From positions 218-64,217 of the forward strand of contig JACQXK010000001.1 of NCBI GenBank assembly GCA_016208765.1: a DNA stretch of 64,000 nucleotides, written 5' to 3'. The notes beneath the pieces were generated by a model. The model saw nothing but the letters and a program-made list of their open reading frames with translations, was not told the DNA's origin and did no database searches. This stretch comes from Candidatus Omnitrophota bacterium. Lineage in GTDB: Bacteria > Omnitrophota > Gorgyraeia > Gygaellales > Profunditerraquicolaceae. The translations under genes and the position numbers were made by a program. Every line of letters starts with the position of its first letter. The first letter of the stretch is position 1. Below, piece after piece: positions 35,835 through 51,838 of the stretch.

Positions 35835-35835
35835 G

Positions 35836-36273
35836 ATGGCTTATCTTAATATTGAGCAGATAATGCAAAGTATTTCGCAAAGGTTCCCGATGTTGTTTGT
35901 TGACAGGATCATTGAGCTTGAGCCGGGAAAGCAGGTTACAGCGATAAAAAATGTAACGATGAATGAACAATTTTTTTCAGGGCACTTTCCGGATGCCCCT
36001 ATTATGCCCGGGACATTGATTGTTGAAGCAATGGCGCAGGTCTCAACTTTTCTTTTTTATAATCCCGAGGACCCTCATAAAAAACTTGATTTCTTTTTGG
36101 GTGTAATTAAAGATGCCCGTTTTTTTAGGCCTGTAGTTCCCGGTGACAAAATAAAGATTGTTGCCCAGAGTATCCGGCTGGCAGAAGATAGCGCATACGT
36201 TAAGGCAAGCGCAGTTGTTGAGGATGCAAAGGTTTGTGAGGCAGAGCTTGTATTCGTGCGGAGAAAGAAATGA
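35836..36273 (+). CDS. fabZ: FabZ-like 3-hydroxyacyl-ACP dehydratase (hotdog fold)
   Basis: …FFSGHFPDAPIMPGTLIVEAMAQV… catalytic His and hotdog motif. Confidence 0.85.
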   Translation: MAYLNIEQIMQSISQRFPMLFVDRIIELEPGKQVTAIKNVTMNEQFFSGHFPDAPIMPGTLIVEAMAQVSTFLFYNPEDPHKKLDFFLGVIKDARFFRPVVPGDKIKIVAQSIRLAEDSAYVKASAVVEDAKVCEAELVFVRRKK

Positions 36274-37481
36274 AAAGAATTGTTATTACCGGCCTTGGGG
36301 CGGTTACTTCTATCGGATTGGGATGGAAAGATTTCTGGGTTAACCTTTTAGAAGGAAGATCCGGTATTTCAAAGATAACGGTTTTTGATACATCAAGGCA
36401 CGTAACTCACGTGGGAGGCGAGGTAAAAAGTTTTCGCCCGGAAGATTTTATTCCAAGGGCAAAAATAAAATATATCGGCAGGGCTTCGCAATTGGCGATT
36501 GCCGCGACTAAAATGGCATTGGCTGATGCAAAACTGGAAAAAGAGCTTTATTCTGAGGTGAGGACTTCGGTTTGCCTTGGTACGACTATGGGAGAGATCA
36601 GGTCGGTGGAAACCGCGGATCATTCCTGGATTAATTCAAGTAAAGATAAGCATCAGATTGACCCTTTTGAGGTTTACCGTTCTTCGGTAAATAATATCCC
36701 CTCAAATGTAGCCATTGCGTTTCACTTAAAAGGAAGGAACCGTATTTTTACCACTGCCTGTGCATCAGGAAATTACGCTATTGGCTACGGGTTTGATCTT
36801 TTGCGTTCAGGAAAAACAGACCTTGTTGTTGCAGGAGGCGCAGATGCACTTTCTTGGATTGCCTTTACCGGTTTTAATAAAGTGAGCGCCACTGCTCCAG
36901 AAAGATGCCAGCCTTTTGACAAAAATAGATTAGGCATGATCCCCGGAGAGGGCTCGGGTGTGTTAGTGCTTGAGGATTTGGATTCTGCGCTTTTGCGGGG
37001 TGCGCCTATTTATGCAGAAATCTTAGGCTATGGTTTAAGCTGTGATGCCAATCATATGACCAATCCAAATCCCGAGGGGGTTGCTGCTTGCATGCGCAAT
37101 GCCATGCTTGATGCCGGAATAAAACCAAGAGATGTTGATTATATCAGCGCGCATGGCACTGGAACTATTTTTAATGATAGGACAGAGAGTGCTGCTATTA
37201 ACGAGGTTTTTGGCAAGCGTTCGGTAAAGGTGAGCTCAATTAAGTCTATGCTGGGCCATACCATGGGAGCGGCCTCGGCAATTGAGGCAATTGCCTGCTG
37301 CCTTGCCTTAAAAGACCAGGTGCTTCCTCCGACGATAAATTATGAAACTCCGGATCCGGAATGTGATATAGATTGTATTCCTAATGCCGCCAGAAAACAA
37401 AAAGTGGATGTGGTTTTGAACAATGGTTTTGCTTTTGGCGGGAATAATGCTTGTGTCGTGTTAAAAAGATTTACAACTTGA
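36270..37481 (+). CDS. beta-ketoacyl-ACP synthase II-like (catalytically complete)
   Basis: Cys (TACASGNYAIGYG), His (ISAHGTGT), Lys/His (KSMLGHTMGAAS), C-terminal NNGFAFGGNNACVVL. Confidence 0.85.
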   Translation: MKRIVITGLGAVTSIGLGWKDFWVNLLEGRSGISKITVFDTSRHVTHVGGEVKSFRPEDFIPRAKIKYIGRASQLAIAATKMALADAKLEKELYSEVRTSVCLGTTMGEIRSVETADHSWINSSKDKHQIDPFEVYRSSVNNIPSNVAIAFHLKGRNRIFTTACASGNYAIGYGFDLLRSGKTDLVVAGGADALSWIAFTGFNKVSATAPERCQPFDKNRLGMIPGEGSGVLVLEDLDSALLRGAPIYAEILGYGLSCDANHMTNPNPEGVAACMRNAMLDAGIKPRDVDYISAHGTGTIFNDRTESAAINEVFGKRSVKVSSIKSMLGHTMGAASAIEAIACCLALKDQVLPPTINYETPDPECDIDCIPNAARKQKVDVVLNNGFAFGGNNACVVLKRFTT

Positions 37482-37494
37482 AAAGGAGGAAGCG

Positions 37495-37746
37495 ATGTTA
37501 GAGAATTTAGAAATGGAATTTAAGGAGATGTTATCAAAATTAACCGGGCTTGAACCAACTGAAATCGGCGACGAGGATGATTTGTTTAAAGACCTGGGGA
37601 TTGATTCTTTAAAGGTTATTGAGATTGCCACGCAAATTGAACGTAACTACAAAGTTGTGGTAAAAGACAGCCAGTTGGCGCGCCTGCGTACAGTAAAAGA
37701 CGCGGTAACTTTTTTAAGGGACCTTTTGGAGAAAAAGAATGCCTAA
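37495..37746 (+). CDS. acyl carrier protein
   Basis: LGIDSLKVIEIATQIE phosphopantetheine attachment site (DSL). Confidence 0.8.
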   Translation: MLENLEMEFKEMLSKLTGLEPTEIGDEDDLFKDLGIDSLKVIEIATQIERNYKVVVKDSQLARLRTVKDAVTFLRDLLEKKNA

Positions 37747-39049
37747 GGAAAAAAGAATTGCCATTACCGGTATAGGCCCGCTTGCATCCATTGGCACGGG
37801 CCGTAAAGAATTGTGGCAGAATTTGCTCGCCGGTAAAACTAATATTAAACTTGATGAAGCTTATATTGGAGACGAGCTTTGGGATAAATATCATTTTCAC
37901 AAGGTTGACAATTTTGATATTTCCCGTTTCGGCCTTGACAGGGGCGCTTTGGATTGGATCAAAGACTGGAAGCAGGGTGATGAAATAAAGGATTTATTAT
38001 ATTTGTTAGCCGTGATCAAGCTTGCTATTGATGACAGTGGGTTAGTGTATAATCCAGATGCTGAAAGTGATTTCGGTTTGGTTTTAGCTCATGAAAATAT
38101 GGCGCTGATCCCGTTTTTATTTAAGGTCAGCGAAACTGCGTATAATCTCATGAGCGATAAATCAAAACAGCTTACAAAAAAGAAGTTTTACGACGAGGTT
38201 TATCGTCTTTGTCTTAAGGCTGGTTATGATGTTCAGCCGTTTATGACCTTGTTTCATGTGGCAAAAGTGTTTAATGTCAGGCAGCATTCTTTATTTATTT
38301 GTAATGCCTGTGCTTCGGGATTGTATGCTTTGGAAACCGCCAGTGAAATGATACATAGTAATCAGAATTCTTCGGTGATTGTTGCGGCTTCGGATTTTCC
38401 GGATATTTACAAGTATTTATGGTTTAGGGACCTGGGAATTTATTCTAAAGATGGGATTTGCCGGCCATTTTCCAAAGATAGTAACGGCCTTGTTTTTGGA
38501 GACGGCGGAGTCGCAATTGTTATGGAAGATATGGAACATGCAAAAAAACGCAATGCTCCCATATATGGTGAATATTTGGGCGGTGGTTTTGCTCTTGAAG
38601 GTTGGCAGGTCACTGTGCCAAAAGTCGGTAGTGATTCTTATCAGAACGCGATGTTAAAGGCCTTGGAGCAGAGCAAGGTAAAGAGAGAAGATATAGATTT
38701 GCTCTGCCCGCACGGAGTAGGCTCGCATGTTATTGATTATTATGAATCAAAGGCAATTACTGAGATTTTCGGAGACAACCCTAAAAAACCATTAATTACT
38801 GCTTTTAAGCCTTACGTCGGGCACAACTTGGGAGGCAGCGCTTTACTTGAAGCGGCGATTTTGCTGCTTTGTTTGAGTAATGACACGGTTTTACCCGCTC
38901 TTAATTCCAGCAATTCTAATCCCGCCTATAAAATCCAACTTGTTCAGCAAACAGCAAAAACCAGGCTTAAAACTGTAATGAAAGCTTGTGCTGCCTTTGC
39001 CGGATTCAATTCCGCAGTGGTGTTTGGGAAGGGTGATAGCCTTGTGTAG
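37739..39049 (+). CDS. divergent beta-ketoacyl synthase with Cys-His-His triad and an ~80-aa N-terminal insertion
   Basis: ICNACASGLYALETA (Cys), LCPHGVGSH (His), KPYVGHNLGGSA (His). The insertion between the first conserved block and the Cys loop has no clear family match. Confidence 0.75.
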   Translation: MPKEKRIAITGIGPLASIGTGRKELWQNLLAGKTNIKLDEAYIGDELWDKYHFHKVDNFDISRFGLDRGALDWIKDWKQGDEIKDLLYLLAVIKLAIDDSGLVYNPDAESDFGLVLAHENMALIPFLFKVSETAYNLMSDKSKQLTKKKFYDEVYRLCLKAGYDVQPFMTLFHVAKVFNVRQHSLFICNACASGLYALETASEMIHSNQNSSVIVAASDFPDIYKYLWFRDLGIYSKDGICRPFSKDSNGLVFGDGGVAIVMEDMEHAKKRNAPIYGEYLGGGFALEGWQVTVPKVGSDSYQNAMLKALEQSKVKREDIDLLCPHGVGSHVIDYYESKAITEIFGDNPKKPLITAFKPYVGHNLGGSALLEAAILLLCLSNDTVLPALNSSNSNPAYKIQLVQQTAKTRLKTVMKACAAFAGFNSAVVFGKGDSLV

Positions 39050-39092: not shown

Positions 39093-39120
39093 TTGACTCC
39101 TGAAAATTACATGTTATATT
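39093..39120 (+). promoter_or_regulatory. sigma70-like promoter candidate upstream of the secreted repeat protein / RHS operon
   Basis: TTGACT (39093-39098), 16-nt spacer, TATATT (39115-39120). Confidence 0.35.
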
Positions 39121-39179: not shown

Positions 39180-40466
39180 GTGATATTAAAGGCTAAGCCA
39201 ACAAAGGTTTTGATTATAACTTTGGCTTTAGCCTTATTTTTTTGTCTTTTTACTGCTTCTGCGTTTGCCGGCGCTCTTTCTATCCCCATGGTCGGCCCCT
39301 CAGCAGGCGGCTGCACTGCTAACTACCAGCAAATCTTCACCACTACCTTTAATGACTTAAGCGGCTGGCAGCATGTTAACTATGTCTACTTTGTAATTAA
39401 CACTACTGCTTCTGGCTCCAGCTGTTTTTATGGCTACTACAATCAGAATACCAACAAGCTCTATATTAAAAATGATGCAGGTAATGCTTGGTTAGGTGGA
39501 TTTGCTCCCGGCTCAAACAATCTAATTGAAAACTCTTATGTTAAGCTAAACTGCGCTCAAACTACAGTCTCAGGCTCAGGACAGACTATGTTTGTAAACT
39601 GGGCAGTAACTTTTAAGCCTCCTTTTGTCGGTACAAAAAATATGTATCTTTATGTCAGGGACGACTCTAATGCTTATCAGCCTCTTACTAAAAGAGGCAC
39701 CTGGACTATTCCTAACCATACCCCAACAATAGTATCAGTTATTCCTAATCAGGGAACCTCTCAACCTGAGCAAGCCTTAACCTTTACCACTATTTACCTT
39801 GATACTGATACCTGGATTAATATTAAGTATGTCTATTTCCGAATTAGCCCCTCTCTTACAGGTTTGACTAATTGCTTCTATGGCTACTATGACCAGGATA
39901 ACAACAAGCTCTACCTAAGAAATGACACTAACACAGCCTGGCTTGGAGGCTACACCCCCGGCTCAAACTATACTATTGAAAACTCTTATGCTAAATTAGA
40001 CTGCTCTAAGACAATTGTTACAGGAAATTCCGATACCTTAAGCATTAACTGGCAGATTATCCCTAAAACCACCTTTACCGGCACAAAGAACCTCTATCTT
40101 TATGTCAGAGATAACAATAATGCCTACCAAGGCTGGTTACAGAAGGGGACATGGAGTATTGATAATACAGATACTACTCCGCCGCAGATTACCCAGCTTA
40201 GCCCTGTGGATGCAAGCCGTATTTATGAAAATGCTTCTGTTGTTATTAAGCCAACAATAACTGATAACAATCAGTCTGCAGTTACTTATCAATTTTCTGT
40301 TGATGGAGTAGTTAAACAGGTTTGGTCAAGTAGTGCTACTTATAATTGGGTAAGTCCTTTAGCAGGTGCGCATACTATTAAGGCAGAAGCAAAGGATGAG
40401 GCCGGGCAGTCTATCAAAAGTGCTGAGGTATTTATCTTAAGAAAACCCATGGAAGTTGCAAATTAA
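39180..40466 (+). CDS. secreted protein with two tandem ~150-aa beta-rich repeats and a C-terminal Ig-like domain
   Basis: Signal peptide ending SAFAGA. Repeat 1 (…NYVYFVINTTASGSSCFYGYYNQNTNKLYIKNDAGNAWLGGFAPGSN…NMYLYVRDDSNAYQ…GTWTI) and repeat 2 (…KYVYFRISPSL…CFYGYYDQDNNKLYLRNDTNTAWLGGYTPGSN…NLYLYVRDNNNAYQ…GTWSI) are clearly homologous. GTG start; 6-nt gap to the RHS gene. Confidence 0.6.
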   Translation: MILKAKPTKVLIITLALALFFCLFTASAFAGALSIPMVGPSAGGCTANYQQIFTTTFNDLSGWQHVNYVYFVINTTASGSSCFYGYYNQNTNKLYIKNDAGNAWLGGFAPGSNNLIENSYVKLNCAQTTVSGSGQTMFVNWAVTFKPPFVGTKNMYLYVRDDSNAYQPLTKRGTWTIPNHTPTIVSVIPNQGTSQPEQALTFTTIYLDTDTWINIKYVYFRISPSLTGLTNCFYGYYDQDNNKLYLRNDTNTAWLGGYTPGSNYTIENSYAKLDCSKTIVTGNSDTLSINWQIIPKTTFTGTKNLYLYVRDNNNAYQGWLQKGTWSIDNTDTTPPQITQLSPVDASRIYENASVVIKPTITDNNQSAVTYQFSVDGVVKQVWSSSATYNWVSPLAGAHTIKAEAKDEAGQSIKSAEVFILRKPMEVAN

Positions 40467-40472
40467 CCATAT

Positions 40473-43400
40473 ATGAAAAAGTCAATCATCAAAATTCTTT
40501 CTTTGGCTTTAATCATTACGCACTTATTTACAATTTGTTTAAGGGATGTTTCCTTTGCTGCTGGGTCAAGCACAACTACTTCTAACACAAGTACAACTAA
40601 TTCTGGCGCAAGTACAACTAAAAGCACAACAACTTCTATCCAATCGCAGTCTAAGTCAACAAGCAGCGACACTAAAACCAAGAGCCCTGCTCTTAGTTCA
40701 GCCAAATCAATGAGCCTATCCGCAGCAAGCAGTTCTTCGTCTCCACAAATGAGCACAAGTTTTAACACTTCAGTTTTAAAATCTTTTCAGAGCGATCCCT
40801 TTACCGGAAGAGCATCGTTTTCCGTTTCTATAAGTGTTCCGGTAGGCCGGAAAGGTATTCAGCCTAATATTGCGCTCACCTATGCCTCAGGTTCAGGTAA
40901 CGGCATATTAGGCGTAGGTTGGAGCTTAGAGTTAGGTTCTATTCAGCGTTCCACTAAACGCGGTACTCCAAAATATGATTCTACGGATACTTTTATTTTT
41001 AACTCCTTAGGCTCAAATCAGGAATTAGTTAATATTGGCGGTAATGAATACCGTACTAAAATTGAAGGCAGTTTCTCAAAGTTTACTTTTGACGGCACAA
41101 GCTGGGTAATCACTGATAAAGGTGGCACAAAATACTACTTTGGGCAAGATGAGGCTTCAAGACAGATAAATTCTAAGGGAATATTTTCATGGAATTTAAA
41201 TAAGGTTGTTGATCTGCAGACGAATTTTCTTGAAATAGAATATTTTGTTGATCAGGGCCAGATATACCCAGTTAAGGTTAAATATACAGGTAATCAATCC
41301 CAGAATCTTGAGCCTTTATGTGAAGTTCATTTTGTTTTCACTGATCGCGCTGACTATTCTTTTAATTACCGCAGCGGCTCAAAAGTTGTAACTGCAAAAA
41401 GGCTTACTGAAATTAAGTCTAAATTTCGCAGCAATATAATAAATCAGTACAAAATAGAGTATCTTGAAGAACAAAATGCAAGGCCGCTTTCCTTAATAAA
41501 GCAAATTACACTGTTTGATGCATCTTCAAACAATTCTTATCCTCCGGTAGTATTTACTTATCAGGAATTAAACCCCAGTTTTACTGATATTCAGCAATTG
41601 CCGATCTTACGCCGCAGTGATGATCCTTTAAGGAATTCCGAGGAGTACAGTTTTTTCCGGTATCAAAGCGAGAACAAAGTATTTAGCACTATGCTTGATA
41701 TAAATTCAGATGGATTGGTTGACTGGATACAGCGTAAAAACAATTCTCCGTATACAAATTACTCTGTTTTGTTAAATAACGGCTCAGGGTTTAATGAGCC
41801 TCTTGGCTGGGGGCCTTTATTGGGAGATTTAGCAGAAGGGGCAGTTGAATGGAGCAATGACGGTTTATACCGGGATTTAGGAGTTTTAGATATTAATGGC
41901 GACAGCCTTGCTGACAGGGTTTATTATAAAATTAATGATCCAAGATACCAGGTTCAGCTAAATACAGGGTTAGGCTTTGATAATTTTTATACTTATTTTA
42001 GCCAGTTGTATGGCGGCGGAGAAGCATATGATTGTATAACAGGAATTTCTTCAAATGGGATCAGGTCTGAAACAATGGACATAAATGGTGACGGTTTTGC
42101 TGACAAAGTAATGGCAACAAGAAATGGCTCTCCGTATAATTCCATGGATGTGCAGCTAAATAACGGCTCCTCTTTTGGCCAGATAATAAAATGGCCGGTT
42201 TCATGGGAAGACAGTAGGCTTACATCAGAGGGGTGGAATTATCTAAGGGCATCCTCGGGTAATACAACCTTACTTACAATCTTAGATATTAACGGTGACG
42301 GTTTGCCAGACAGAGTGATGCGAAAATATGATGCGCCTTATACTGGTTTTGATGTCCAGCTTAATAATGGCAGTGGATTTGATAAGCCTGTGGTTTGGGG
42401 GCCGCTACTTTATAACTGCGGGCCAGAAGCATCTTCTCCAGAGTGGAGCGATAACGGCCTTTATAAAAGATTAGCCCTTATTGATATGAATGGAGACGGC
42501 CTGCCTGACAGGGTGCATTATGAAGATGGAGATAATAAATATGAGGTGCAATTAAATAACGGCCATGGTTTTGAAGCTACTTATGTGTATTGGACAAATA
42601 TTGGCTCCCGTGGACAGGAATTTGATTGTATCACAGGTTATTCTGTTGGCCCGTATGGTGTGCGCGCTGACGTATTTGATATTAATGGTGACGGCCTGCC
42701 GGATAAGCTTACCAATAAAATAACAGGCGCTCCTTATGATTATGTGGAAGCCAGATTAAATAATAATCCTGTGCCTGCAGGTTATCTTAAGGAAATCTCA
42801 AACGGCATCGGAGGCTCAGTAGCAGTTACCTACAAGCCATATAAAGGTAAGGATAACTCAACTTACGACCCACAAAAACTCTTACCGTTTTGTGTCTGGG
42901 TGGTTGATTCTATTACTCAAAACTCAGGTTTTGAACAGCCGATAAATACCCATAGTTTTAAATACGACTCTGGATTTTTTGATTTTAAGGATCGCGAATT
43001 CCGCGGCTTTGGCTATGCAAAAACCACTGATTCCGAAGGTACTTCCAGCGAAAGCTATTTTAAACAGGACAGCATCTTTAAAGCAAGGCCATATAAACAG
43101 GAAGTAAAAGATAAAGACAACAAGCTTTATTCAAAAACAGAAAACACCTGGCAAAGTGTTGAGCTTTATCCCGGAGTTAACTTGCCATATCTAGTTCAAA
43201 CTGATAATTATGTTTATGATCCTGATAATTCCGACAATTACAAACAAACCCGCGTAAAATACGAATATGATTCTTATGGTAATCCTAAAAAAGTCATCTC
43301 TGAAGGTGAGGTTAATGTAATTGGCGATGAGAAGACCCAGGTTACGGAATATATTTATAATACTACTGATTGGATTATCTCTTGCCCTAAATCTACTACA

Positions 43401-46400
43401 CTTTTAGATAAGAACCAAACTAAAGTTTCTGAAAAGCGCTTCTACTACGATAATCATGCCAGCCTTGATGAAATCCCGGCAAAAGGAATACTAAGCAAGG
43501 AAGAAAGCTACCTCAAGGATCCAATTAAAAATACCCAAAAGTATATATCATCAAGCTATGCTTATGACAGTTATGGTAATTTAACCAGCTCAACTGATGC
43601 CTTGGGTAGGATCACCTCAATTGTCTATGACACAGTGCAGTTTTCCTATCCAGTGCAAACAACCAATGCCTTAGGTAAAAGCGTAAAAACTGTTTATTAC
43701 GGAATTAACGATTCTCTACAAGATGCAATTACTGGCTCAGGTTTACCCGGCCAGGTAAAATTCACCGAAGATTACAATACTCAAAAAAATTATAATATCT
43801 ATGATTCTTTGGGTAGAATTACTAAGGCTATCGGCCCGCTTGATTCGGAGGACTCTCCAGGAGCAATCTACGAATATGATTTATCAAGCCAGCCGATTAA
43901 AGTTGTCAGAAAAGTTAAGGTTGATTATTCCGCTCAACCTGCGTATCTTACAAGTTATTCTTTTTATGATGGCTTGGGCCGTGTGATTGAAGATAAAACT
44001 CCTGCTGAAAATAATCCCATAAATAATCAGCCCCGCCAGATAATCTCAGGCCTTGTAAGATATGATTCCCGCTGCCAGATTAAGGAGAAGTACTTGCCTT
44101 ATTTTGTGGATGCCTCAGCAAACTACGAATCTCCTGTATATAATACTCCGCACTCAAGTTTTATTTACGATGCTTTAGGCCGCCTCACCCAAAGCATTAA
44201 CCCGGATTTAACCAGCTCTAGTGTTTTATACGGAGTTTGGTTCAAGGCCACTACTGATGAAAATAACCACTCTAAGGGTTATTATTTTGATTCCTATGGA
44301 AAAATTACCAAAGTAGAAGAGCATAACAGTGGTCAGATTTATACCACTAAATATGAATATGACACATTAGGTAATCTTATTAAGCTTACAGATAATCAGA
44401 ATAATGTTACCCAGATTTGGTATGATTCACTATGTAGGAAAATAAAGATGTCAGATCCAGATATGGGTATCTGGCTGTATGAATATGATGCCTTGGGGAA
44501 TCTTATCAAGCAAACCGATGCCAAGAATCAGGTTTTGGAATTCCACTATGATTCTTTAAATAGGCTGACTAACAAGCTTAACTCAAGTAACCCAAGCAAC
44601 CCAATAACCCTGGTAACTTACTCTTACGACGACCCCGGCAAAGACCATTGCCTTGGCCGTCTTTCCAAAATAACTGATCTATCCGGCTCAACTGATTTTT
44701 ACTATGACAAATTAGGTAGAGAAGTTAAATCCACAAAAACTATTACAGGCTCAGGTACTTATACTGTTGAGCGCATCTATGATGCTTTAGACAGATTACT
44801 CACTCTTAAATACCCCGACTCTACACTCATAACCTACAGCTATAATCCTCAAGGAATTGAAAAGGTGCAGGGACTGTCCCCGCAGGGGACTGTCCCTTAT
44901 ATTCTAAATATTGATTACTCTCCCACAGGCCAACTGCTCAAGGTGCAATATGGCAATGGCACTCAAACAAACTACGCTTATGAGCCTAATACCCTAAGGC
45001 TAAATAATATCGTTACCCAATCACCAAGCGGTAAAATCCAGGACCTAAGCTATCAGTTTGATAATACCGGTAACATCAGGAACATAGTTGATGCAGTAAA
45101 CACCGCTACTCAAAGTTTTGTTTATGATGACCTAAGCCGTCTTATTCAAGCAAACGGCTCTTATGGTGCGCTTACTTACTCTTATGATTCCATAGGAAAC
45201 ATGATTAATAAAGAAGGTGTTAATTTAACTTATGGCAAAGGCGGTAAGCTTCCTCATGCTGTTACTCAATACGGAAATGACTTGTCTATTGATTATGATG
45301 CAAATGGAAACATGATTACAAAAGGCGACCTATCTCTAATCTATGATGCAGAAAACCGCCTCAAAGAAGCTCAAAGAGCTCCTCCACAACCGGTAACTAT
45401 CAGTATCACCCTAAAGCCGGGATGGAATTTCCTCTCGCTTCCAATAATCCCTCAGGATACTAAAGTAAACTCAGTTTTGGCTCAAATCTCCGGAAAGTAC
45501 TCTCAAATATCCCGCTATAGCCCTAATACCAAAACCTTTGAGCATAATGTTGCTAATACTAAGTTTGATCAGTTCACTGATTTTGAATACGGCAAGGGCT
45601 ATCAAATCTATATTACAAGTACAACAGATGTTGACTTAAATATTACCGGCACACTACCATTAACTACTCAAAACATCGGTCTTGTTACAGGAGAGAACTT
45701 GATCTTTTGCCCAAAGACAACCGAGACTACAGTAGAAGCAGCGCTATTTCCTTTAAAGCTTGATACAGATTATTCTAAGGTTGTTTACTATAACAAATTC
45801 TTAAATAAGTTTGAAGAATACTCAAGCATAAAACAGGAATTTACGACCCTAAAACCCGGAACCAGCTATTATCTTTACTGTTTAAAAGATACTACTCTAA
45901 CTGTATCCGGCTCTCAACAACCACCAGTTAGTTTTACTTATGATGGCGACGGAGGAAGAGTGAGAAAGGGACTGTCCCCGCAGGGGACTGTCCCTGAACA
46001 ATGGACCACCTACATCGGCTCCCTCTACGAAATTAACTCTGACGGCACTACTACTAAACATATTTTCTCCGGCTCAAACCGTATTGCCTCGTCATTGCGA
46101 AACGCCGCAGGCGTTGAAGCAATCTCGTATTTCCATAGTGATCATTTAGGAAGCTCTAATATTATCACTGACTCAAGTGGCAAGCAGATAGGCTTTACTG
46201 AATTTACTCCTTATGGCTCAACCTTTAAACAAACAGGAACCTTTGATCCAAAATACAAATTCACCGGCAAAGAGCTTGATTCTTCCACTGGATTATATTA
46301 TTATGGTGCCAGGTATTATGATCCGCTCTTTGGCAGATTCATTACTCCAGACACCATCGTCCAAGCTCCCTATGATCCACAGAGTTTAAACCGATATTCT

Positions 46401-47330
46401 TACTGTCGAAACAACCCGATAAATCTGGTTGACCCTACCGGACACTCGTGGAAGAGTTTTTGGAAAAAGTTCGGTGGTGCCATAGCTTCGGTGGTAGTGG
46501 GAATAGTGGTAGGAGTATTTACTGCTGGTATTGGAACCGCCTTTTACACTTCAATGATGGGTGGTAGTGCGTTTTGGGGTGGGGTATTAAGTGCTGCGAC
46601 TACTGGTGCACTAGCAGGTGCCGCTGCCGGAGGTGTAGGTGGCGCCTTCTATGGGCAGAATATAGGTCAATCAATGTTAATGGGGGCGGCGTTTGGCGCC
46701 CTTAGCGGGGCGGTCTTTGGTGGCATGATCAGCAAGGTTGGTGGACCTGATTGGAATTGGAAGGTTGGGCTTGAAAGGGTTGGATTATCTGCCATTGCCG
46801 GTGGAGGTATATCCGAGTTGGCAGGGGGATCTTTTGAGAATGGGGCGATGTTCGCCGGCGCTATTGCGGGAGCAGATTTTCTATATAGGGGTATCGTAAG
46901 TACTAAGCCTGCAGGAAAGAATGTAGGTGCCTCTATGAAAACAGCACAAGATAATGGCTTGCCAAAGTTGGATGCCAATGGTAAAGCTCTTATGGTGGAT
47001 AATAAGCCTGTAGTTATAAATACTCCGAAATATAGTAATGTCGGGTTTGGGTCAAGAGTTGGTGATATTAGCCTGGGGAATGGTCTCACTGGAGAAACAG
47101 GGCCTGTTATGAGTGGTTTAGGCCGGTTTGTTCCCGGTTTCCAAAGGTTTTCCCTTGCTCATGATATAACAGGTGATTTTTTAAGTAGAACCTTTGGCGG
47201 CACAGTCAATGCCGCTGCCTTTAATTTTGAAACAATGCCTGTGCTATATGGGCTTAATGCAGCGGGGTCGCTAATCAATGATAGCCCAGGTATGATTGGG
47301 TACTATGAAGAAAGTTGGAATGATAGATAA
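40473..47330 (+). CDS. giant secreted SpvB/FG-GAP/RHS-repeat polymorphic toxin (TcB-TcC 'BC'-like) with a glycine-zipper-rich C-terminal tip
   Basis: Layout: signal peptide; S/T-rich linker; SpvB-type N-terminal domain (…SFSVSISVPVGRKGIQPNIALTYASGSGNGILGVGWSL…); seven DINGDGLPD-type FG-GAP repeats; many YD repeats; an inserted ~185-aa domain (45381-45930); RHS core (YFHSDHLGSSNII…GARYYDPLFGRFITPD…NPINLVDPTGHSW); a ~290-aa tip starting about 46447 with GxxxG-rich hydrophobic segments. Confidence 0.9.
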   Translation: MKKSIIKILSLALIITHLFTICLRDVSFAAGSSTTTSNTSTTNSGASTTKSTTTSIQSQSKSTSSDTKTKSPALSSAKSMSLSAASSSSSPQMSTSFNTSVLKSFQSDPFTGRASFSVSISVPVGRKGIQPNIALTYASGSGNGILGVGWSLELGSIQRSTKRGTPKYDSTDTFIFNSLGSNQELVNIGGNEYRTKIEGSFSKFTFDGTSWVITDKGGTKYYFGQDEASRQINSKGIFSWNLNKVVDLQTNFLEIEYFVDQGQIYPVKVKYTGNQSQNLEPLCEVHFVFTDRADYSFNYRSGSKVVTAKRLTEIKSKFRSNIINQYKIEYLEEQNARPLSLIKQITLFDASSNNSYPPVVFTYQELNPSFTDIQQLPILRRSDDPLRNSEEYSFFRYQSENKVFSTMLDINSDGLVDWIQRKNNSPYTNYSVLLNNGSGFNEPLGWGPLLGDLAEGAVEWSNDGLYRDLGVLDINGDSLADRVYYKINDPRYQVQLNTGLGFDNFYTYFSQLYGGGEAYDCITGISSNGIRSETMDINGDGFADKVMATRNGSPYNSMDVQLNNGSSFGQIIKWPVSWEDSRLTSEGWNYLRASSGNTTLLTILDINGDGLPDRVMRKYDAPYTGFDVQLNNGSGFDKPVVWGPLLYNCGPEASSPEWSDNGLYKRLALIDMNGDGLPDRVHYEDGDNKYEVQLNNGHGFEATYVYWTNIGSRGQEFDCITGYSVGPYGVRADVFDINGDGLPDKLTNKITGAPYDYVEARLNNNPVPAGYLKEISNGIGGSVAVTYKPYKGKDNSTYDPQKLLPFCVWVVDSITQNSGFEQPINTHSFKYDSGFFDFKDREFRGFGYAKTTDSEGTSSESYFKQDSIFKARPYKQEVKDKDNKLYSKTENTWQSVELYPGVNLPYLVQTDNYVYDPDNSDNYKQTRVKYEYDSYGNPKKVISEGEVNVIGDEKTQVTEYIYNTTDWIISCPKSTTLLDKNQTKVSEKRFYYDNHASLDEIPAKGILSKEESYLKDPIKNTQKYISSSYAYDSYGNLTSSTDALGRITSIVYDTVQFSYPVQTTNALGKSVKTVYYGINDSLQDAITGSGLPGQVKFTEDYNTQKNYNIYDSLGRITKAIGPLDSEDSPGAIYEYDLSSQPIKVVRKVKVDYSAQPAYLTSYSFYDGLGRVIEDKTPAENNPINNQPRQIISGLVRYDSRCQIKEKYLPYFVDASANYESPVYNTPHSSFIYDALGRLTQSINPDLTSSSVLYGVWFKATTDENNHSKGYYFDSYGKITKVEEHNSGQIYTTKYEYDTLGNLIKLTDNQNNVTQIWYDSLCRKIKMSDPDMGIWLYEYDALGNLIKQTDAKNQVLEFHYDSLNRLTNKLNSSNPSNPITLVTYSYDDPGKDHCLGRLSKITDLSGSTDFYYDKLGREVKSTKTITGSGTYTVERIYDALDRLLTLKYPDSTLITYSYNPQGIEKVQGLSPQGTVPYILNIDYSPTGQLLKVQYGNGTQTNYAYEPNTLRLNNIVTQSPSGKIQDLSYQFDNTGNIRNIVDAVNTATQSFVYDDLSRLIQANGSYGALTYSYDSIGNMINKEGVNLTYGKGGKLPHAVTQYGNDLSIDYDANGNMITKGDLSLIYDAENRLKEAQRAPPQPVTISITLKPGWNFLSLPIIPQDTKVNSVLAQISGKYSQISRYSPNTKTFEHNVANTKFDQFTDFEYGKGYQIYITSTTDVDLNITGTLPLTTQNIGLVTGENLIFCPKTTETTVEAALFPLKLDTDYSKVVYYNKFLNKFEEYSSIKQEFTTLKPGTSYYLYCLKDTTLTVSGSQQPPVSFTYDGDGGRVRKGLSPQGTVPEQWTTYIGSLYEINSDGTTTKHIFSGSNRIASSLRNAAGVEAISYFHSDHLGSSNIITDSSGKQIGFTEFTPYGSTFKQTGTFDPKYKFTGKELDSSTGLYYYGARYYDPLFGRFITPDTIVQAPYDPQSLNRYSYCRNNPINLVDPTGHSWKSFWKKFGGAIASVVVGIVVGVFTAGIGTAFYTSMMGGSAFWGGVLSAATTGALAGAAAGGVGGAFYGQNIGQSMLMGAAFGALSGAVFGGMISKVGGPDWNWKVGLERVGLSAIAGGGISELAGGSFENGAMFAGAIAGADFLYRGIVSTKPAGKNVGASMKTAQDNGLPKLDANGKALMVDNKPVVINTPKYSNVGFGSRVGDISLGNGLTGETGPVMSGLGRFVPGFQRFSLAHDITGDFLSRTFGGTVNAAAFNFETMPVLYGLNAAGSLINDSPGMIGYYEESWNDR
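44870..44896 (+). repeat. 27-nt GC-rich tandem-palindrome insert GGGACTGTCCCCGCAGGGGACTGTCCC inside the RHS ORF (copy 1)
   Basis: Read directly. Each half, GGGACTGTCCC, is palindromic around a central base. About 74% GC in an AT-rich gene. In-frame, encoding GLSPQGTVP. Confidence 0.7.
45969..45995 (+). repeat. identical 27-nt GC-rich tandem-palindrome insert inside the RHS ORF (copy 2)
   Basis: 27/27 identical to 44870-44896, same reading frame (GLSPQGTVP), 1.1 kb downstream, immediately 5' of the block that is duplicated at 49038. Confidence 0.7.
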
Positions 47331-47343
47331 TATGGGAGATTTT

Positions 47344-47949
47344 ATGAGAATAGTAGTCTTAATCGTGATACTGCTTGTATCTTTTAGTCAGAGTTCTTAC
47401 GCCGGGTTGTTTAAATTTGACCCCGAGGCGAAATTTAAAGAAGCTGATTATATGATTAGTATAGATCGGCATATTGCAGCGGATAAGCTGATAAGTGAGG
47501 TTATAGCTTATTGCAAAAAGAAAAATGATGAGGCTTGTCTAGCGAAAGCCTTCTTTTATTATGGGAAGTTGTTAATGGCAGAAATTCCAGATGGATATGA
47601 TCGTGAGAAGAATAGTGCACGTAGGCCAGGAGGCAGCTATGTAGACGACAGCGTGACTGTAGGAAATATTGATCAAAAAGCCATGGAGTACTTTGACAAA
47701 GCACTATACTTAGCAAAGAAACACGGTCTAAATGATGCTGCCTCTGCTATATACATCAAGATTGGTATCTTGCAATACACGCGTTTTAAGGATAGTACTG
47801 CGGCTTGTGAGAGTTTTGATCGCAGCTTGGAGTATTACTTGCTATTTAAAAAGGACAATCCGAACACAACGGTCATAATACCAAAGGGGTTTGATAGTTT
47901 TGAAGAATATATAGCGCAGGCGAAGCGCGAAGCGGGGTGTCAGAAATAG
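47344..47949 (+). CDS. candidate cognate immunity protein (signal peptide + ~180-aa soluble domain) for the RHS tip
   Basis: Lies immediately 3' of the RHS stop. GGGAGA RBS 5 nt before the ATG at 47344 (alternative ATG at 47332; the track start 47296 overlaps the RHS gene). MRIVVLIVILLVSFSQSSYAG signal sequence. Confidence 0.45.
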   Translation: MRIVVLIVILLVSFSQSSYAGLFKFDPEAKFKEADYMISIDRHIAADKLISEVIAYCKKKNDEACLAKAFFYYGKLLMAEIPDGYDREKNSARRPGGSYVDDSVTVGNIDQKAMEYFDKALYLAKKHGLNDAASAIYIKIGILQYTRFKDSTAACESFDRSLEYYLLFKKDNPNTTVIIPKGFDSFEEYIAQAKREAGCQK

Positions 47950-48096
47950 AGCGGCTTGAGAGATATGGGATTAGCACAAATTGTGCGGATTTTGCGGTGG
48001 GGACAACTCATGAAGCGCTAAGTCCACAAGGCAAATAAAATTACGCGAGATAGTATAGGCAATTTTTTTTACACGAATGCATAAGTTGGAGGAAAA

Positions 48097-48891
48097 ATGA
48101 GTAAAACACAATATTATGATTCAACTATAGAATCACCGCCTGCTACTATGGATCAATATTATGCGGATGTAGGTGAGAGAATAATAGTTAGAGAAATTAG
48201 GAAATATGGTAAAAATCTGAAAGTTTTAGATGTAGGCTGCGGAGAAGGAATGTTGGGTTCTTTTCTTTTGGACGATAATCAAGTTTATGGTGTAGAAATC
48301 TTTGAAGAAAAAGTTAAAAGATGTTGTGAAAAGGGAATTAATGCAAAATTGGTTAGGGATAATGATCCAATACCATATATGGATTCTTGTTTTGATGTAG
48401 TTACTTGTTGTCAAGTTTTGGAACATCTGTTGAATCCATTTTACATGGTTGAAGAAATGCATAGAGTTTTAAAAAATGATGGTTTGCTGGTAGTTACAGT
48501 TCCTAATATATATGATTTAATAACAAGAGTTAGGTTTCCTTTTGGGATTTGGACGAAAATCCAATTTGGCGCAAATCTTGGACACATAAGATTCTATTCT
48601 AAGAAAACATTAATAAAATTGATCAAAGAAGAAGGATTTGTAATACAGAAATGTATATCATATGGTTTTATAGTTTACTTGCAAAAACCTGTAGCTTTAT
48701 TAGCTTATGGTTTAGCATTTGTTGTGAATCCGTTATGGTTTGTAAAAAATAGAGGGGGATTAAAGCTTAGGAAACAACAGATTTATCAGAATATTAACAT
48801 TTTTCTAACTAAAATCTTGGGTTTTACATCTTTTGGTGCTGATTTAATGATAATAGCAAAAAAGCAAACAAAATTCTCCATTTCTGTCTAA
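48097..48891 (+). CDS. class I SAM-dependent methyltransferase with C-terminal hydrophobic segment
   Basis: Motif I VLDVGCGEGMLG, acidic loop after beta2 (VYGVEI), motif II region DVVTCCQVLEHL; GGAGG RBS upstream. Confidence 0.7.
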   Translation: MSKTQYYDSTIESPPATMDQYYADVGERIIVREIRKYGKNLKVLDVGCGEGMLGSFLLDDNQVYGVEIFEEKVKRCCEKGINAKLVRDNDPIPYMDSCFDVVTCCQVLEHLLNPFYMVEEMHRVLKNDGLLVVTVPNIYDLITRVRFPFGIWTKIQFGANLGHIRFYSKKTLIKLIKEEGFVIQKCISYGFIVYLQKPVALLAYGLAFVVNPLWFVKNRGGLKLRKQQIYQNINIFLTKILGFTSFGADLMIIAKKQTKFSISV

Positions 48892-49036
48892 AATTTGCTT
48901 AACTTACATTACTATAAGAAGTTAGATAAATCTGTTTGTTAGGTACGAACGTAAAATTAAGGGTTCTATTTTTCTGGATGGGAATTACGGGCGGAAATTC
49001 CTGGGACACAACACTTAACTTTAAGAAGCAACTTCC

Positions 49037-49100
49037 ACCACCTACATCGGCTCCCTCTACGAAGTCAACTCTGACGGCACCACTACTAAACACATCTTCA
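49037..49100 (+). other. orphan RHS gene fragment (recombination scar) homologous to 46005-46070 of the main RHS gene
   Basis: CCACCTACATCGGCTCCCTCTACGAA is 26/26 identical to 46006-46031, followed by about 85% identity for ~40 nt. It encodes TTYIGSLYEVNSDGTTTKHIF, preceded by an in-frame TAA, then diverges (RNQDAFHNHL, stop). Confidence 0.6.
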
Positions 49101-49255
49101 GAAACCAAGACGCTTTCCATAACCATTTGTAACTTAATTACTCCCACAACAAATCCTTTGGTCGGAATTAGATAAGGATTAAAATTAATTTGACAACAAG
49201 TAATTTATAGGTTATAGTTTATATGTGATATAGATTATAACTTATATTAAATGAC

Positions 49256-49969
49256 ATGGATAAAAAATTACGAAAGATTCAATTAGAAGTTTTAAGGTTA
49301 TTCTCAAATAAGGCAAAGAAGTTTGCTCTTTCTGGGGGTACTGCGCTTGAGCTATGTTATTTGCACCATCGTTTTTCCTCTGATTTGGATTTCTTCTCTC
49401 CGAAATATGACATTAAGGAAATTGAAAACCTGATTGCTTTTTTTGAAGAGAAGCTTAAAACAAAAATTAAACTTGAAGCAGATTTTGCCATTGCTGAAAA
49501 AGCCAGGGTGAGGTTTTACACCGTGTAATTAAAAGGACAGAAGAGGCCGCTGAAGCCTGATTTTGGTGAAGATGTTTTAATAAAAAGCCCTGAAATAAAG
49601 AAAACCGGAGGCATAAGGGCTTATTGCGCTAAGAATATTTATTTTCAGAAGATTGTTGCAATAACAGGAACGCAATTTGAATTTGACCGGATAGGAAGGC
49701 GGGTTTTGCAAGGTAGGCAGGCGGCCAGAGATGTCTATGATATTTATATGCTTTCAAAGAAAATAATGCCTTTGCATTTATTCCTAATAACAATTCCTGA
49801 ACAGTTTCGGCGCGGGATGGTGCATTGGTATAGATCGTTTTCTCGTAATGAACTGAAGTTAGAGTTGCTTGATCTTGACATTTCCGACAAGAATTTTGAT
49901 TCGCAGGAAATGATCCAATATTTGGAAGATGAAATAAAATTGTTTGTGAAAGAAGGAATCAAGAAATGA
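49256..49969 (+). pseudogene. AbiEii/DUF1814-family nucleotidyltransferase gene interrupted by an in-frame TAA (49526-49528)
   Basis: Track ORFs 49256-49528 and 49706-49969 are in the same frame, and the frame between them is open except for the single TAA. N-terminal …ALSGGTALELCYLHHRFSSDLDFFSP… is the NTase motif of this family. C-terminal …GRQAARDVYDIYML… continues the family. Confidence 0.6.
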
Positions 49970-50472
49970 AGATTGAAAAGTATTTTTGGAATCTTAATGA
50001 AACTGCATTAAATGAAACCATGAAAATCATTAAAAAACCATCACATCCTAAATTCGCCTCGGTTATGGTTAATTTTCTTTCAAGGTGCGATAAGCCCAAA
50101 GAGCTATTTTCTGTCCTTTCTAGACGAGAATTTGTTGAAAATTGGCCCCAGATTAGGAGATATTGGGTTAAAGTAGAACTGCAATCCGAGTTTAGAGATT
50201 GGTGGGAAACTATTTTTGAACAGTTGATGGAAGAACGAATGCAAAAACAAGTTAGGCCAAAAGGTACGGCCCCGATTTTCTTAAAGGCAATCGGAGTTCA
50301 AATTAGGAAGGCAAGGCTCGGTAAAAGACTGAGCCAAAAAGATTTGTCTCTTATTATCGGAATAAAACAACCTGAAATATCTAAAATAGAAGACGGAAAG
50401 AAGAATATTACGATTGTTACCTTGGCTAAATTTTGCAAGGTATTGAATATTAGTAAAATAAGCATAGAATAA
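49966..50472 (+). CDS. HTH-XRE (Cro/C1-type) DNA-binding protein with ~100-aa N-terminal unknown domain, coupled to the NTase pseudogene
   Basis: C-terminal IRKARLGKRLSQKDLSLIIGIKQPEISKIEDGKKNITIVTLAKFCKVLNI is a classical XRE helix-turn-helix; ATGA overlap with the upstream ORF. Confidence 0.6.
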   Translation: MKIEKYFWNLNETALNETMKIIKKPSHPKFASVMVNFLSRCDKPKELFSVLSRREFVENWPQIRRYWVKVELQSEFRDWWETIFEQLMEERMQKQVRPKGTAPIFLKAIGVQIRKARLGKRLSQKDLSLIIGIKQPEISKIEDGKKNITIVTLAKFCKVLNISKISIE

Positions 50473-50492
50473 AAGAGGTTTTTGTTAATTAA

Positions 50493-51838
50493 ATGGAAAA
50501 ATACGATTACGACGCGATAATTATTGGAGCAGGGATTGGCGGGTTGGTCTGCGGCTGCTATCTGGCTAAGGCCGGCCTTAAGACGCTGATTGTGGAAAAG
50601 AACGCCCAGCCCGGCGGCTACTGTACTTCTTTCACCCGAAATGGATTCAGGTTTGATGCTTGTGCGCATTCGCTGGGGAGCTTGCGGGATGGTGGAATTC
50701 TAAAGGTGATATTGAAGGAATTAGATTTAGAGAATAGAATAGAATTTAAAAGAAGTAATCCTCAGGATACTATCATTACTATTGATGGTAAAATATCTTT
50801 TTGGAATGATTTAGGTAAAACAAAGCAAGAATTTTCTAGTAAATTTACTGATGAAAGAGCTAACATAGATAAGTTCTTTGATTTTATTGTTAATTGTGAT
50901 GCCGTGTCGTTTAATTCACTCAAGAAATCAACATTCTTAGATGTGTTAAACAAATACTTTAATAATGAGAAATTAAAATCAGTTTTATCATTGCCTGTTC
51001 TTGGGAATGCCGGATTGTCTGCTTCTAAAGCTTCAGCTTTTACAGCCATCGCTTTATTCAAAGAGTTTATGTTTGATGGAGGATATTATCCGGGAAGTAG
51101 CATGCAACAGCGTTTGTTAATAAAATAAAATTAAAAGATGACCGTGTTGATGGAGTAGAAATAAATGGCAGATATTTTAAATCTGGAAAGTATATAGTTT
51201 CTGATGTTGATGCAACTCAAACTTTCTTGGATTTGGTAGGTGAGAGGGTAATAGGAAAAGATAGTAAACAGAAATTAGCTTTATTAAAACCAGCTCATTC
51301 TATTCTTGTTTTATATCTTGGTACAGATGGAAAATTAAGCAACATGCCTATTGGTACCAACGTTTGGGCTATGCCTAATTATGATATTGAGAAGATGTAT
51401 TGTCTTGTAGATGATGGTGTAGTTGATGATTTAGATTGTTATTTATTGAGGTTAATGCCTGATAAGAAGAGTATGGTCATGCTTGTTAATGCTCCTTTTA
51501 AAGATAGTGATTTTTGGAGAGAAAACAAACAAAGGCTGATTGATAATTTTATAGAAAAGATTAAATTTGTAATTCCAGATATAAGAGAACGAATTGTATT
51601 TAAAGATGCAGCTACTCCTGCAACACTTTATAGATGGACATTAAACTATCATGGTTCTGCTTATGGTTGGGAAGGCGCTCCATCTCAGTTTCTGGTTAAC
51701 AGTTTTTCTCAGAATACTTTTATTGAAGGTTTGTATTTAACTGGTCATTGGGCAACTTTGGTGCAGGGAATTTCAGGAGTTACAAGATTGGGGAGAGATA
51801 CAGCTAGAATTATTATAAATAAAAGTAGAAGAAAATGA
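50493..51838 (+). pseudogene. CrtI/phytoene-desaturase-family FAD-dependent oxidoreductase split by a frameshift near 51105-51125
   Basis: N-terminal Rossmann YDAIIIGAGIGGLVCGCYLAKAG…EKNAQPGGYCTSF. The +1 frame continues without a stop (…FVNKIKLKDDRVDGVEINGRYFKSGKYIVSDVDATQTF…) into track ORF 51227-51838 (…GSAYGWEGAPSQF…). The shift lies in an A-rich run. Confidence 0.6.

Follow-up and report, generated by a model that had tools for sequence, protein, structure and literature searches.

On the stretch of 64,000 nucleotides (nt) analyzed here and referred to as the window (Candidatus Omnitrophota bacterium, GenBank assembly GCA_016208765.1, contig JACQXK010000001.1, positions 218 to 64,217 of the forward strand), an open reading frame (ORF) with an ATG start spans 40473..47330 on the plus strand, as given by the ORF list and its translation. 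It encodes a protein of 2285 amino acids (aa) and is followed by a gene for a small exported protein. Judging from sequence and gene order, this locus is very probably a polymorphic RHS toxin-immunity cassette, and a toxin plus its cognate exported immunity protein is the best-supported reading of the two genes. By profile comparison, the C-terminal tip of the large protein belongs to a widespread unnamed family that is found only behind RHS cores. That this tip acts on the envelope by inserting into a membrane, and is neutralized in the periplasm, is to us the most likely mechanism, at about even odds, and derives from the composition of the tip and from its predicted fold.

An unnamed family of cargo domains behind RHS cores

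The first-pass annotation, which had been made from the letters of the window, recognized no motif in the tip, and the tip indeed matches no known toxin family, as nothing rises above threshold in Pfam, in NCBIfam or among the sequences of the PDB. The only trace is given by two glycine-zipper models of Pfam, Gly-zipper_YMGG with 18.9 bits (cut-off 28.9) and Gly-zipper_Omp with 16.2 bits (cut-off 25), and the gathering thresholds of the glycine-zipper clan are not reached. NCBIfam holds no model for the tip family. When 1.84 billion cluster representatives were searched exhaustively with a profile, 1148, 298, and 33 of them counted as tip relatives at E ≤ 1e-3, 1e-10, and 1e-30, respectively; a rare family, as suggested by the 21 relatives of a word-index search, was overturned by this count. 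RHS repeats are present in 26/26 long carriers that were scanned, FG-GAP together with TcdB_midN in 14 of them and SpvB in 10, and no PAAR, VgrG, LXG, or TPS domain occurs in these 26 carriers among the matches listed (25 of 31 families). The core end NNPxxxxDPxG[HYF] directly precedes the tip in 70 members having N-terminal sequence. Full-length carriers with an organism name come from metagenome-assembled genomes (MAGs) of Planctomycetales, Planctomycetia, and Omnitrophota, and the toxin of a Planctomycetia MAG (locus L008) is 41.6% identical to that of the window over its entire length. Most other members of the family come from metagenome assemblies, and a metagenome scan contributed 9 more loci, which are mostly short.

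In the databases, many family members are called from internal Met codons inside the glycine-zipper region, which gives the family the appearance of numerous small “hypothetical proteins”. Since the tip family now reads “hypothetical” or is cut by gene callers, it deserves a profile-HMM (hidden Markov model) entry. If our reading is true, the tips form an unnamed family of toxin domains delivered by RHS proteins, and a large one, with at least about 300 clusters at 50% identity.

The RHS core ahead of the tip has the residues of an aspartyl autoprotease. NCBIfam assigns Rhs_assc_core (TIGR03696) to aa 1911-1991 with an E value of 2.5e-25 and 88.8 bits, and the core ends, as had been annotated, at DPTGHSW (aa 1987-1993). 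Tc-type RHS cores require one Arg and two Asp residues (PMC9935623), and R1947 (nt 46311), D1960 (nt 46350), and D1987 (nt 46431) of the window toxin align with the catalytic positions of TccC3. The triad is therefore intact, including the catalytic Asp pair (D1960 and D1987) on which the first-pass annotation had counted. By analogy with TccC3, which is cleaved one residue past the Gly of DPxG, the cut is predicted between H1991 and S1992. With an intact triad, a cargo of 294 aa (S1992-R2285, nt 46446-47327) should be cut free and stay in the shell, a prediction drawn from the aligned residues; the tip start formerly placed at 46447 was one base out of frame with this product, which starts at nt 46446. 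As 97.9% of TcC cargoes comprise 201-400 aa (PMC7861908), the cargo would be of normal size.

Exported proteins at the immunity position

The gene at 47344-47949, annotated at first pass as encoding a signal-peptide protein and periplasmic immunity candidate, is present as described, with a Shine-Dalgarno-like site (GGGAGA) 5 nt upstream and a signal-peptide-like N-terminus (MRIVVLIVILLVSFSQSSYA/G, judged by eye from the sequence). Its product, which we call the 47344 protein, matches no Pfam or NCBIfam family and shows only a faint similarity to TPR; it has 15 relatives, each of about 200 aa. The earlier proposal has gained from conserved synteny, orphan cassettes included, by which the 47344 protein is a strong immunity candidate. 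An exported protein is encoded directly downstream in 13 of the 14 distinct loci reached via the tip, a transposase-like gene taking this place in the remaining one, and the tip lies directly upstream in 4/4 loci reached via the 47344 protein. Three mutually unrelated families occupy the immunity position, i.e., family I in eight loci (homologues of the 47344 protein, some with a lipobox), family II in three (lipoproteins of 220-240 aa), and family III in two (lipoproteins of about 130 aa). All of these proteins open with a signal-peptide or lipobox-like sequence as judged by eye, and two Cys residues are conserved in all three aligned family I members, which fits a periplasmic disulfide.

Tips of this family also occur as orphan cassettes. 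Locus L001 (1575-12003) encodes a full-length SpvB/RHS toxin of 2395 aa with a divergent tip subtype (AGPHDW) and a lipoprotein of 101 aa. Downstream come a Y1 transposase and then the orphan cassette P0007, which is accompanied by a family II lipoprotein. Over its first 369 nt, this cassette shares 90.5% identity with the core region of the main gene, which corresponds to the classical Rhs arrangement for tip swapping by recombination. Orphan tip cassettes were also found in loci L002-L006. At L005 (1035-3886) and on a 12.3-kb contig from ENA, the orphan P0001 lies beside two to three tyrosine recombinases, a resolvase, and an HNH endonuclease, and orphan cassettes of the P0001 type may move on integrative elements.

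These features bear on whether the locus encodes a toxin at all. A non-toxic surface or adhesion RHS protein of the teneurin or SGS1 type, in which the helices would serve as an anchor or be non-lethal and the downstream gene would provide an export or assembly factor, is in our estimate very improbable. Indeed, SGS1, which has no proven toxic role, also carries hydrophobic C-terminal helices behind its RHS core, and related shells bear domains of the lectin, CBM, and fn3 types. However, the protease triad of the window toxin is intact whereas teneurins are without the last Asp of the triad (PMC9935623), the polymorphic tips come in subtypes that are exchanged via orphan cassettes, and three unrelated families of small exported proteins at the same position fit immunity and not a conserved assembly factor.

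Architecture of the toxin

As the first-pass annotation had it, one chain unites the parts of TcB and TcC, with the SpvB domain, the propeller, the RHS shell, and the core all above the curated cut-offs of Pfam and NCBIfam (Table 1). The SpvB region matches the TcdB1, YenB, and SpvB chains of the PDB. Instead of the seven FG-GAP repeats counted before, six clear DxNxD[GS]xxD propeller motifs can be made out (aa 409, 473, 536, 605, 671, and 736), the Pfam match to FG-GAP_3 covering aa 536-613 and that to TcdB_toxin_midN aa 729-871 (E 2.9e-22). The “dozens of YD repeats” can be put exactly as 22 YDxxG-like motifs and 30 YD dipeptides, and the PDB sequences matched by the shell are those of TcdB2-TccC3 and of the Rhs and Tse5 shells. 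For the toxin as a whole, the TcdB2-TccC3 fusion is the best PDB sequence match (E 1.4e-35), and further matches comprise YenB/YenC2, Rhs shells from type VI secretion systems (T6SS) including Tse5, teneurins, and mosquito SGS1.

Table 1. Coordinates of the toxin, its domains, and the adjacent genes in the window (aa, residues of the toxin; nt, positions in the window).
Feature	aa	nt	Strand	Basis or remark
Secreted 428-aa protein, possible operon partner		39180..40466	+	Signal peptide, two ~150-aa repeats, C-terminal Ig-like domain
Sec-type signal peptide of toxin	1-29	40473..40559	+	Judged by eye from translation
Ser/Thr-rich low-complexity linker of toxin	30-104	40560-40784	+	
SpvB domain	109-261	40797..41255	+	Pfam PF03534, E 9.8e-23
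FG-GAP beta-propeller and TcdB_toxin_midN	~400-871	41670..43085	+	Pfam FG-GAP_3, TcdB_toxin_midN
RHS/YD-repeat shell	872-1635	43086..45377	+	RHS_repeat E 3.5e-31 (107 bits), YD_repeat_2x, RHS_core
Shell insert domain, ~190 aa	1636-1826	45378..45950	+	Just ahead of core
End of shell and RHS-associated core, aspartyl autoprotease		45951..46445	+	TIGR03696
Tip start	1992-2036	46446..46580	+	Basic stretch, then very hydrophobic transmembrane-like helix AIASVVVGIVVGVFTAGIGTAF
Four-helix glycine-zipper module	2037-2142	46581..46898	+	Helices 1-2 uncharged
Loop and “HD” module	2143-2285	46899..47327	+	GETGP, PG, N, M-P motifs conserved
Immunity candidate, exported 201-aa helical protein (family I)		47344-47949	+	Adjoins tip

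A public gene call (P0022, 100% identical) begins at M93 (nt 40749) and thereby drops the signal peptide and the linker. As equivalents of both are retained in the homologues at L007 and L008, the long start is preferred over M93.

The shell insert (aa 1636-1826) yields nothing meaningful in Pfam when scanned alone at E ≤ 1, and it is kept at the same position in the toxins of L008 and L020 with 38% identity. In other tip carriers, the later part of the RHS region before the core harbors PT-HINT or Laminin_G_3/CBM60/fn3 domains, and together with the insert found here this makes the stretch look like a hot spot for decorating domains. The shell insert is a candidate surface or receptor-binding domain.

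Two modules in the tip

The tip was modeled with AlphaFold2 from an alignment of 118 relatives, and residues of the protein correspond to residues of the model plus 1993. With a mean predicted local distance difference test (pLDDT) of 79.8 and a predicted template modeling score (pTM) of 0.71, the model is confident for residues 44-290, and residues 1-43 are of low confidence, with pLDDT below 50 in both models. This first part contains the transmembrane-like helix, for which the hydropathy over 19 residues peaks at 2.17. Four helices follow at model residues 44-66, 71-93, 103-123, and 128-149. The first two are uncharged, 23 residues long and consist to 52-70% of Gly, Ala, and Ser, and helices 3 and 4 carry the conserved residues R109 (89% conserved), E122, and Y145 (model numbering). 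Gly makes up 24-25% of tip residues 1-150, and 12 GxxxG motifs are found in the tip.

The former view of a tip dominated by glycine zippers holds for this first half; residues from about 150 to 292 form a different, non-hydrophobic, and conserved module. Its loop (model residues 150-207) often holds a pair of Cys residues in distant relatives, as CxxC or Cx7C, which suggests an oxidizing, extracytoplasmic location. The helical part, called the HD module here (model residues 208-289), is non-hydrophobic and predicted with a pLDDT of 84-97 over most of its length. Its residues H2230 and D2231 (H237 and D238 of the model, nt 47160-47165) are invariant in 141/141 aligned relatives. The HD module gives no Pfam match when scanned alone at E ≤ 1 and no PDB match, and resembles no enzyme family or fold.

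That the helical half of the tip is a freely combining module was considered and rejected, since most of the apparently alternative C-terminal ends retain the HD and MP motifs. Truly different C-terminal ends exist in only few relatives, such as P0137 (538 aa), in which the four-helix module is followed, without an HD module, by a domain resembling RlpA/DPBB lytic transglycosylases (4.9e-10 in Pfam and 9.5e-10 in NCBIfam).

Possible mode of action

We propose that the locus encodes a TcB-TcC-like RHS cocoon that is made as a single chain and exported via Sec, together with an exported immunity protein cognate to it. The cocoon would undergo autoproteolysis and then store the hydrophobic cargo within the shell, from which the cargo would leave after delivery to a neighboring diderm bacterium. 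There, the transmembrane-like helix and the glycine-zipper bundle would insert in the cytoplasmic membrane from the periplasmic side, and the target would die through loss of membrane integrity or membrane potential. The His-Asp module would stay at the periplasmic face, where it would be essential for activity and would form the surface bound by the periplasmic or lipoprotein immunity protein in sibling cells. Exit across the outer membrane of the producer and entry into the target would occur without TcA or T6SS, and the shell insert and the adjacent secreted Ig-like protein may take part in both. If this is true, the cargo resembles an integral membrane protein and not a soluble enzyme, and exported proteins of at least three unrelated families would neutralize it.

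Several points weigh against such a mode of action. We infer membrane insertion and depolarization from composition and from a predicted fold. A Foldseek search with the tip model gave no significant match in the PDB (best E 2.4), and as the resemblance of the model to Tim22 finds no support in sequence, the term “membrane protein” rests on analogy. Furthermore, pore-forming toxins usually have integral-membrane immunity proteins, whereas all three families at the immunity position are soluble exported proteins or lipoproteins. The invariant His-Asp pair within a well-folded, non-hydrophobic module looks more like an active site than like a pore, and the exchange seen in P0137 suggests that killing may not be the task of the helical module, which may instead serve as a carrier or anchor. 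The tip is thus not simply the ionophore-like effector of the first-pass annotation, and the HD module and P0137 make an enzyme or a carrier a live alternative to a pore.

As the main rival reading has it, the tip would be a membrane-anchored periplasmic enzyme, with the His-Asp module catalytic on an envelope substrate at the outer face of the cytoplasmic membrane, such as a lipid-linked cell-wall precursor, a phospholipid, or peptidoglycan, and with the helices serving only to anchor or deliver it. We regard this as possible although rather unlikely. The invariance of H2230 and D2231 in all 141 relatives, the conserved N, P, and M positions nearby, and the high pLDDT of a non-hydrophobic module would all fit an enzyme, and so would the export of all immunity-like proteins found downstream, which are soluble proteins or lipoproteins. 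Exported soluble or lipoprotein immunity proteins are the usual pattern for enzyme toxins that act in the periplasm. In the same sense, P0137 carries its RlpA/DPBB domain after the same helical module, and other relatives have unrelated C-terminal ends. However, the HD module finds no counterpart among enzyme families or folds, and two residues do not define an active site. Moreover, nearly every member has both the helical and the HD half, and as even divergent ones keep the HD and MPxAxxYT motifs, the two halves behave as one unit; a pTM of 0.71 also suggests a single packed domain. The His-Asp pair offers a simple handle to separate a pore from an enzyme mechanism.

Another alternative compares the glycine-zipper half with DUF637/PT637 of CdiA or with the N-terminal zipper of Tde1 and sees in it a pre-toxin or translocation module that would carry the HD module across the cytoplasmic membrane of the target, to act inside the cell. 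DUF637 (Pfam PF04830) is the only named family other than glycine zippers that recurs among the tip relatives; it is found below the threshold (cut-off 26.6 bits) in 13 of 118 relatives, with a best E value of 5.5e-5, and in P0164 and P0153 the match to profile positions 88-166 of 168 lies within the tip-like helical half. Translocation of Tde1 requires the glycine zipper (PMC10240207), and a few relatives have alternative C-terminal ends. Nevertheless, we judge this alternative improbable. All immunity candidates are exported and none is cytoplasmic, an extracytoplasmic site is indicated by the loop Cys pairs of distant relatives, the tip of the window itself gives no DUF637 match at E ≤ 1, and no similarity to nucleases or other cytoplasmic toxins is seen in the HD module. 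DUF637 corresponds to the PT637 pre-toxin domain of CdiA-type toxins of the type V secretion system (T5SS) (PMC3482391), and these toxins stand in a context of two-partner secretion (TPS) and filamentous hemagglutinin (FHA) domains whereas all long tip carriers are RHS and not FHA proteins.

Sequence tests of the predicted Tim22-like fold

The likeness of the four-helix module to Tim22 raises the question of homology with Tim17, Tim22, or Tim23, which was tried and rejected, as both the hhalign comparisons and the PRAT scan were negative; the likeness is kept as a fold analogy. The yeast Tim17 and Tim22 sequences used are identical to the PDB chains 8e1m_A and 6lo8_A. With hhalign, the profile of the four helices reached a probability below 1% against Tim17, against Tim22, and against a Tim22 profile of 39 sequences, and its score of 11 versus the Tim set is no better than that of 20 column-shuffled controls. 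The PRAT motif [GA]x2[FY]x10Rx3Dx6[GAS]Gx3G is present in both positive controls and in 0/165 relatives, and Pfam Tim17 is absent for the 118 relatives scanned, among the matches listed. According to earlier work, bacterial matches to Tim17 profiles share only the glycine zipper, and the Tim17 family is without a pinpointed relative among prokaryotes (PMC5072337). For a Tim22-like predicted fold without a sequence signal, only a very remote or a convergent relationship is possible. It is barely credible to us that the four-helix module is a genuine prokaryotic counterpart of the Tim17/Tim22 fold, i.e., a portable self-inserting unit with a lateral cavity that the toxin would plant in the membrane of a rival, where it would conduct ions or let its own His-Asp module pass. 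As a prokaryotic relative is missing so far (PMC5072337), such a link, if true, would matter for the question of how the mitochondrial import machinery originated.

Homology of the tip with SGS1 was likewise considered. The HMMER alignment of the toxin to SGS1 extends from the RHS core into the glycine-zipper region (aa 1889-2098), but the tip alone gives no SGS1 match, so that homology was rejected and the extension is probably driven by composition.

Relation to known systems

Neither the scaffold nor the logic of the system is new. In the TcdB/TcaC class of polymorphic toxins, a signal peptide is combined with SpvB, an integrin-like beta-propeller, and RHS repeats, the C-terminal toxin domain is variable, and an immunity gene is adjacent (Zhang et al., 2012, PMC3482391), and the protein of the window fits this class feature by feature. 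The first-pass annotation had presented the stand-alone scaffold as unusual, which was overstated, as this class was described in 2012 (PMC3482391). Tip-type exchange and stand-alone cassettes are present here too (L001 and L002-L006). In the part of that survey reached by a keyword look-up the tip domain was not found, the only pore-forming entry there being the two-helix Tox-WTIP, and lipoprotein or secreted immunity proteins, which were noted there as exceptional (PMC3482391), are the rule here. If our reading is true, the release of a hydrophobic cargo occurs on the poorly understood Sec-dependent and TcA-independent route of the TcdB/TcaC class.

With the TcB-TcC cocoons (TcdB2-TccC3, PDB 4O9X and 6H6E; YenB/YenC2), the window toxin has in common SpvB, the propeller, the RHS shell, and the core with Arg, Asp, and Asp, and its cargo of about 290 aa is of typical size. 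It differs from them in being one natural chain with a Sec signal peptide and no TcA gene nearby, and in its cargo, a hydrophobic helical domain in contrast to a soluble enzyme. Unlike for Tc toxins, the adjacent immunity-like gene indicates a bacterial target.

The Rhs cocoon of Tse5 from Pseudomonas aeruginosa provides a precedent for a membrane-active cargo. It encloses a hydrophobic, pore-forming C-terminal domain, whose release needs the core Asp protease (PMC10684867, PMC9637101), and Tse5 depolarizes cells from the periplasmic side (PMC10684867). Unlike the window toxin, Tse5 is a T6SS effector without SpvB or propeller. Tse5 is paired with an immunity protein embedded in the membrane, whereas the candidates found here are exported and either soluble or lipoproteins. 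Searches of the PDB sequences with the tip and with the tip profile showed no similarity to the Tse5 tip, the presence of Tse5-CT in the searched set being unconfirmed. If the cargo acts as we propose, the window toxin would be a second cocoon that stores and releases a hydrophobic membrane-active cargo, unrelated in sequence to Tse5. SGS1 (PDB 8FJP) has a Tc-like RHS shell with receptor-type domains outside and about 230 aa of predicted transmembrane helices inside (PMC9935623); its aspartyl-protease site is intact as in the window toxin, but it is a eukaryotic protein from mosquito saliva.

Gly/Ala-rich helical C-terminal domains that dissipate the membrane potential are also described for EsxX, TelE, toxins of the Tse4/Ssp6 type, and the ionophores of contact-dependent growth inhibition (CDI). 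These are delivered via the type VII secretion system, T6SS, or T5SS, have no detectable homology to the tip and are without a His-Asp module. The immunity proteins of CDI ionophores are membrane proteins. In comparison with all these systems, what is new is the cargo family without a named homologue, the two-module architecture of the tip with its Tim22-like predicted fold, and, as judged by synteny, its association with exported immunity-like proteins from three families or more.

Delivery and genomic neighborhood

No TcA-like gene had been noticed in the window at first pass, and no ORF of TcA size exists there besides the toxin, the next largest ORFs encoding 808 and 697 aa. One may therefore ask whether a true Tc-type or host-directed toxin is encoded, with a TcA-like injector or another secretion partner elsewhere in the genome and a eukaryotic target. 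Such an origin would agree with TcdB2-TccC3 as the best PDB sequence match (E 1.4e-35), and orphan tcC genes away from tcA and tcB are known (PMC7861908), while the view is limited to 64 kb of the genome. Still, we hold this to be decidedly improbable. No TcA-sized ORF or T6SS gene lies within 10 kb in L007, L008, and L009, and the only other large gene of L001 encodes a second RHS toxin and not a TcA. The window toxin has a Sec signal peptide, and Tc subunits are not known to carry one. Finally, the adjacent exported protein and the orphan cassettes are hallmarks of polymorphic toxins used by bacteria against bacteria (PMC3482391).

Delivery by T6SS finds no indication in the toxin, which has no PAAR or VgrG match in Pfam or NCBIfam. 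In a Pfam census of 58 ORFs of the window, PAAR and VgrG do not appear among the matches listed (25 of 127 families), all of which are housekeeping, and no unknown protein of VgrG size stands out. The context is ordinary chromosomal, with tRNA synthetases, LptF/G, MlaE, and a cluster for beta-ketoacyl synthases (KS) and acyl carrier proteins (ACP), and the Lpt and Mla genes suggest a diderm envelope. Scans for rRNA, tRNA, and Rfam families gave no match.

The secreted 428-aa protein encoded ahead of the toxin may be an accessory or receptor-binding partner. Its stop codon lies 6 nt ahead of the toxin start. Scanned alone at E ≤ 1, it yields nothing meaningful in Pfam, its Big_7 match of 22.4 bits being below the threshold. 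L008 has an analogous secreted fn3/Ig protein (377 aa) in the same position, and the C-terminal 93 aa are 38% identical. The best sigma-70-like site of the region, at 39093-39120, is not statistically significant, and the scans for promoters and terminators gave no higher counts than expected from shuffled sequence.

Just upstream of the toxin operon, at 34596-39049, three genes for beta-ketoacyl synthases are located, with ORFs of 145 aa (35836-36273) and 83 aa (37495-37746) between them. Two ORFs of the window match PP-binding, and the 145- and 83-aa ORFs may encode carrier proteins. This cluster may belong to a specialized lipid or polyketide pathway unrelated to the toxin.

On the other side, directly after the immunity gene, the GC content drops to 0.33-0.35 at 48000-52000, compared with about 0.40 elsewhere. 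This segment holds genes for a SAM (S-adenosylmethionine) methyltransferase and a helix-turn-helix protein as well as a broken AbiEii gene, and it gives the impression of a small variable or mobile region that flanks the toxin cassette. The AbiEii-like toxin gene (49256-49969) contains an in-frame stop (Q91*), and it is intact, encoding 237 aa, on a 99.88%-identical Logan contig of 4.7 kb (L010, SRR12113402), which derives from independent reads.

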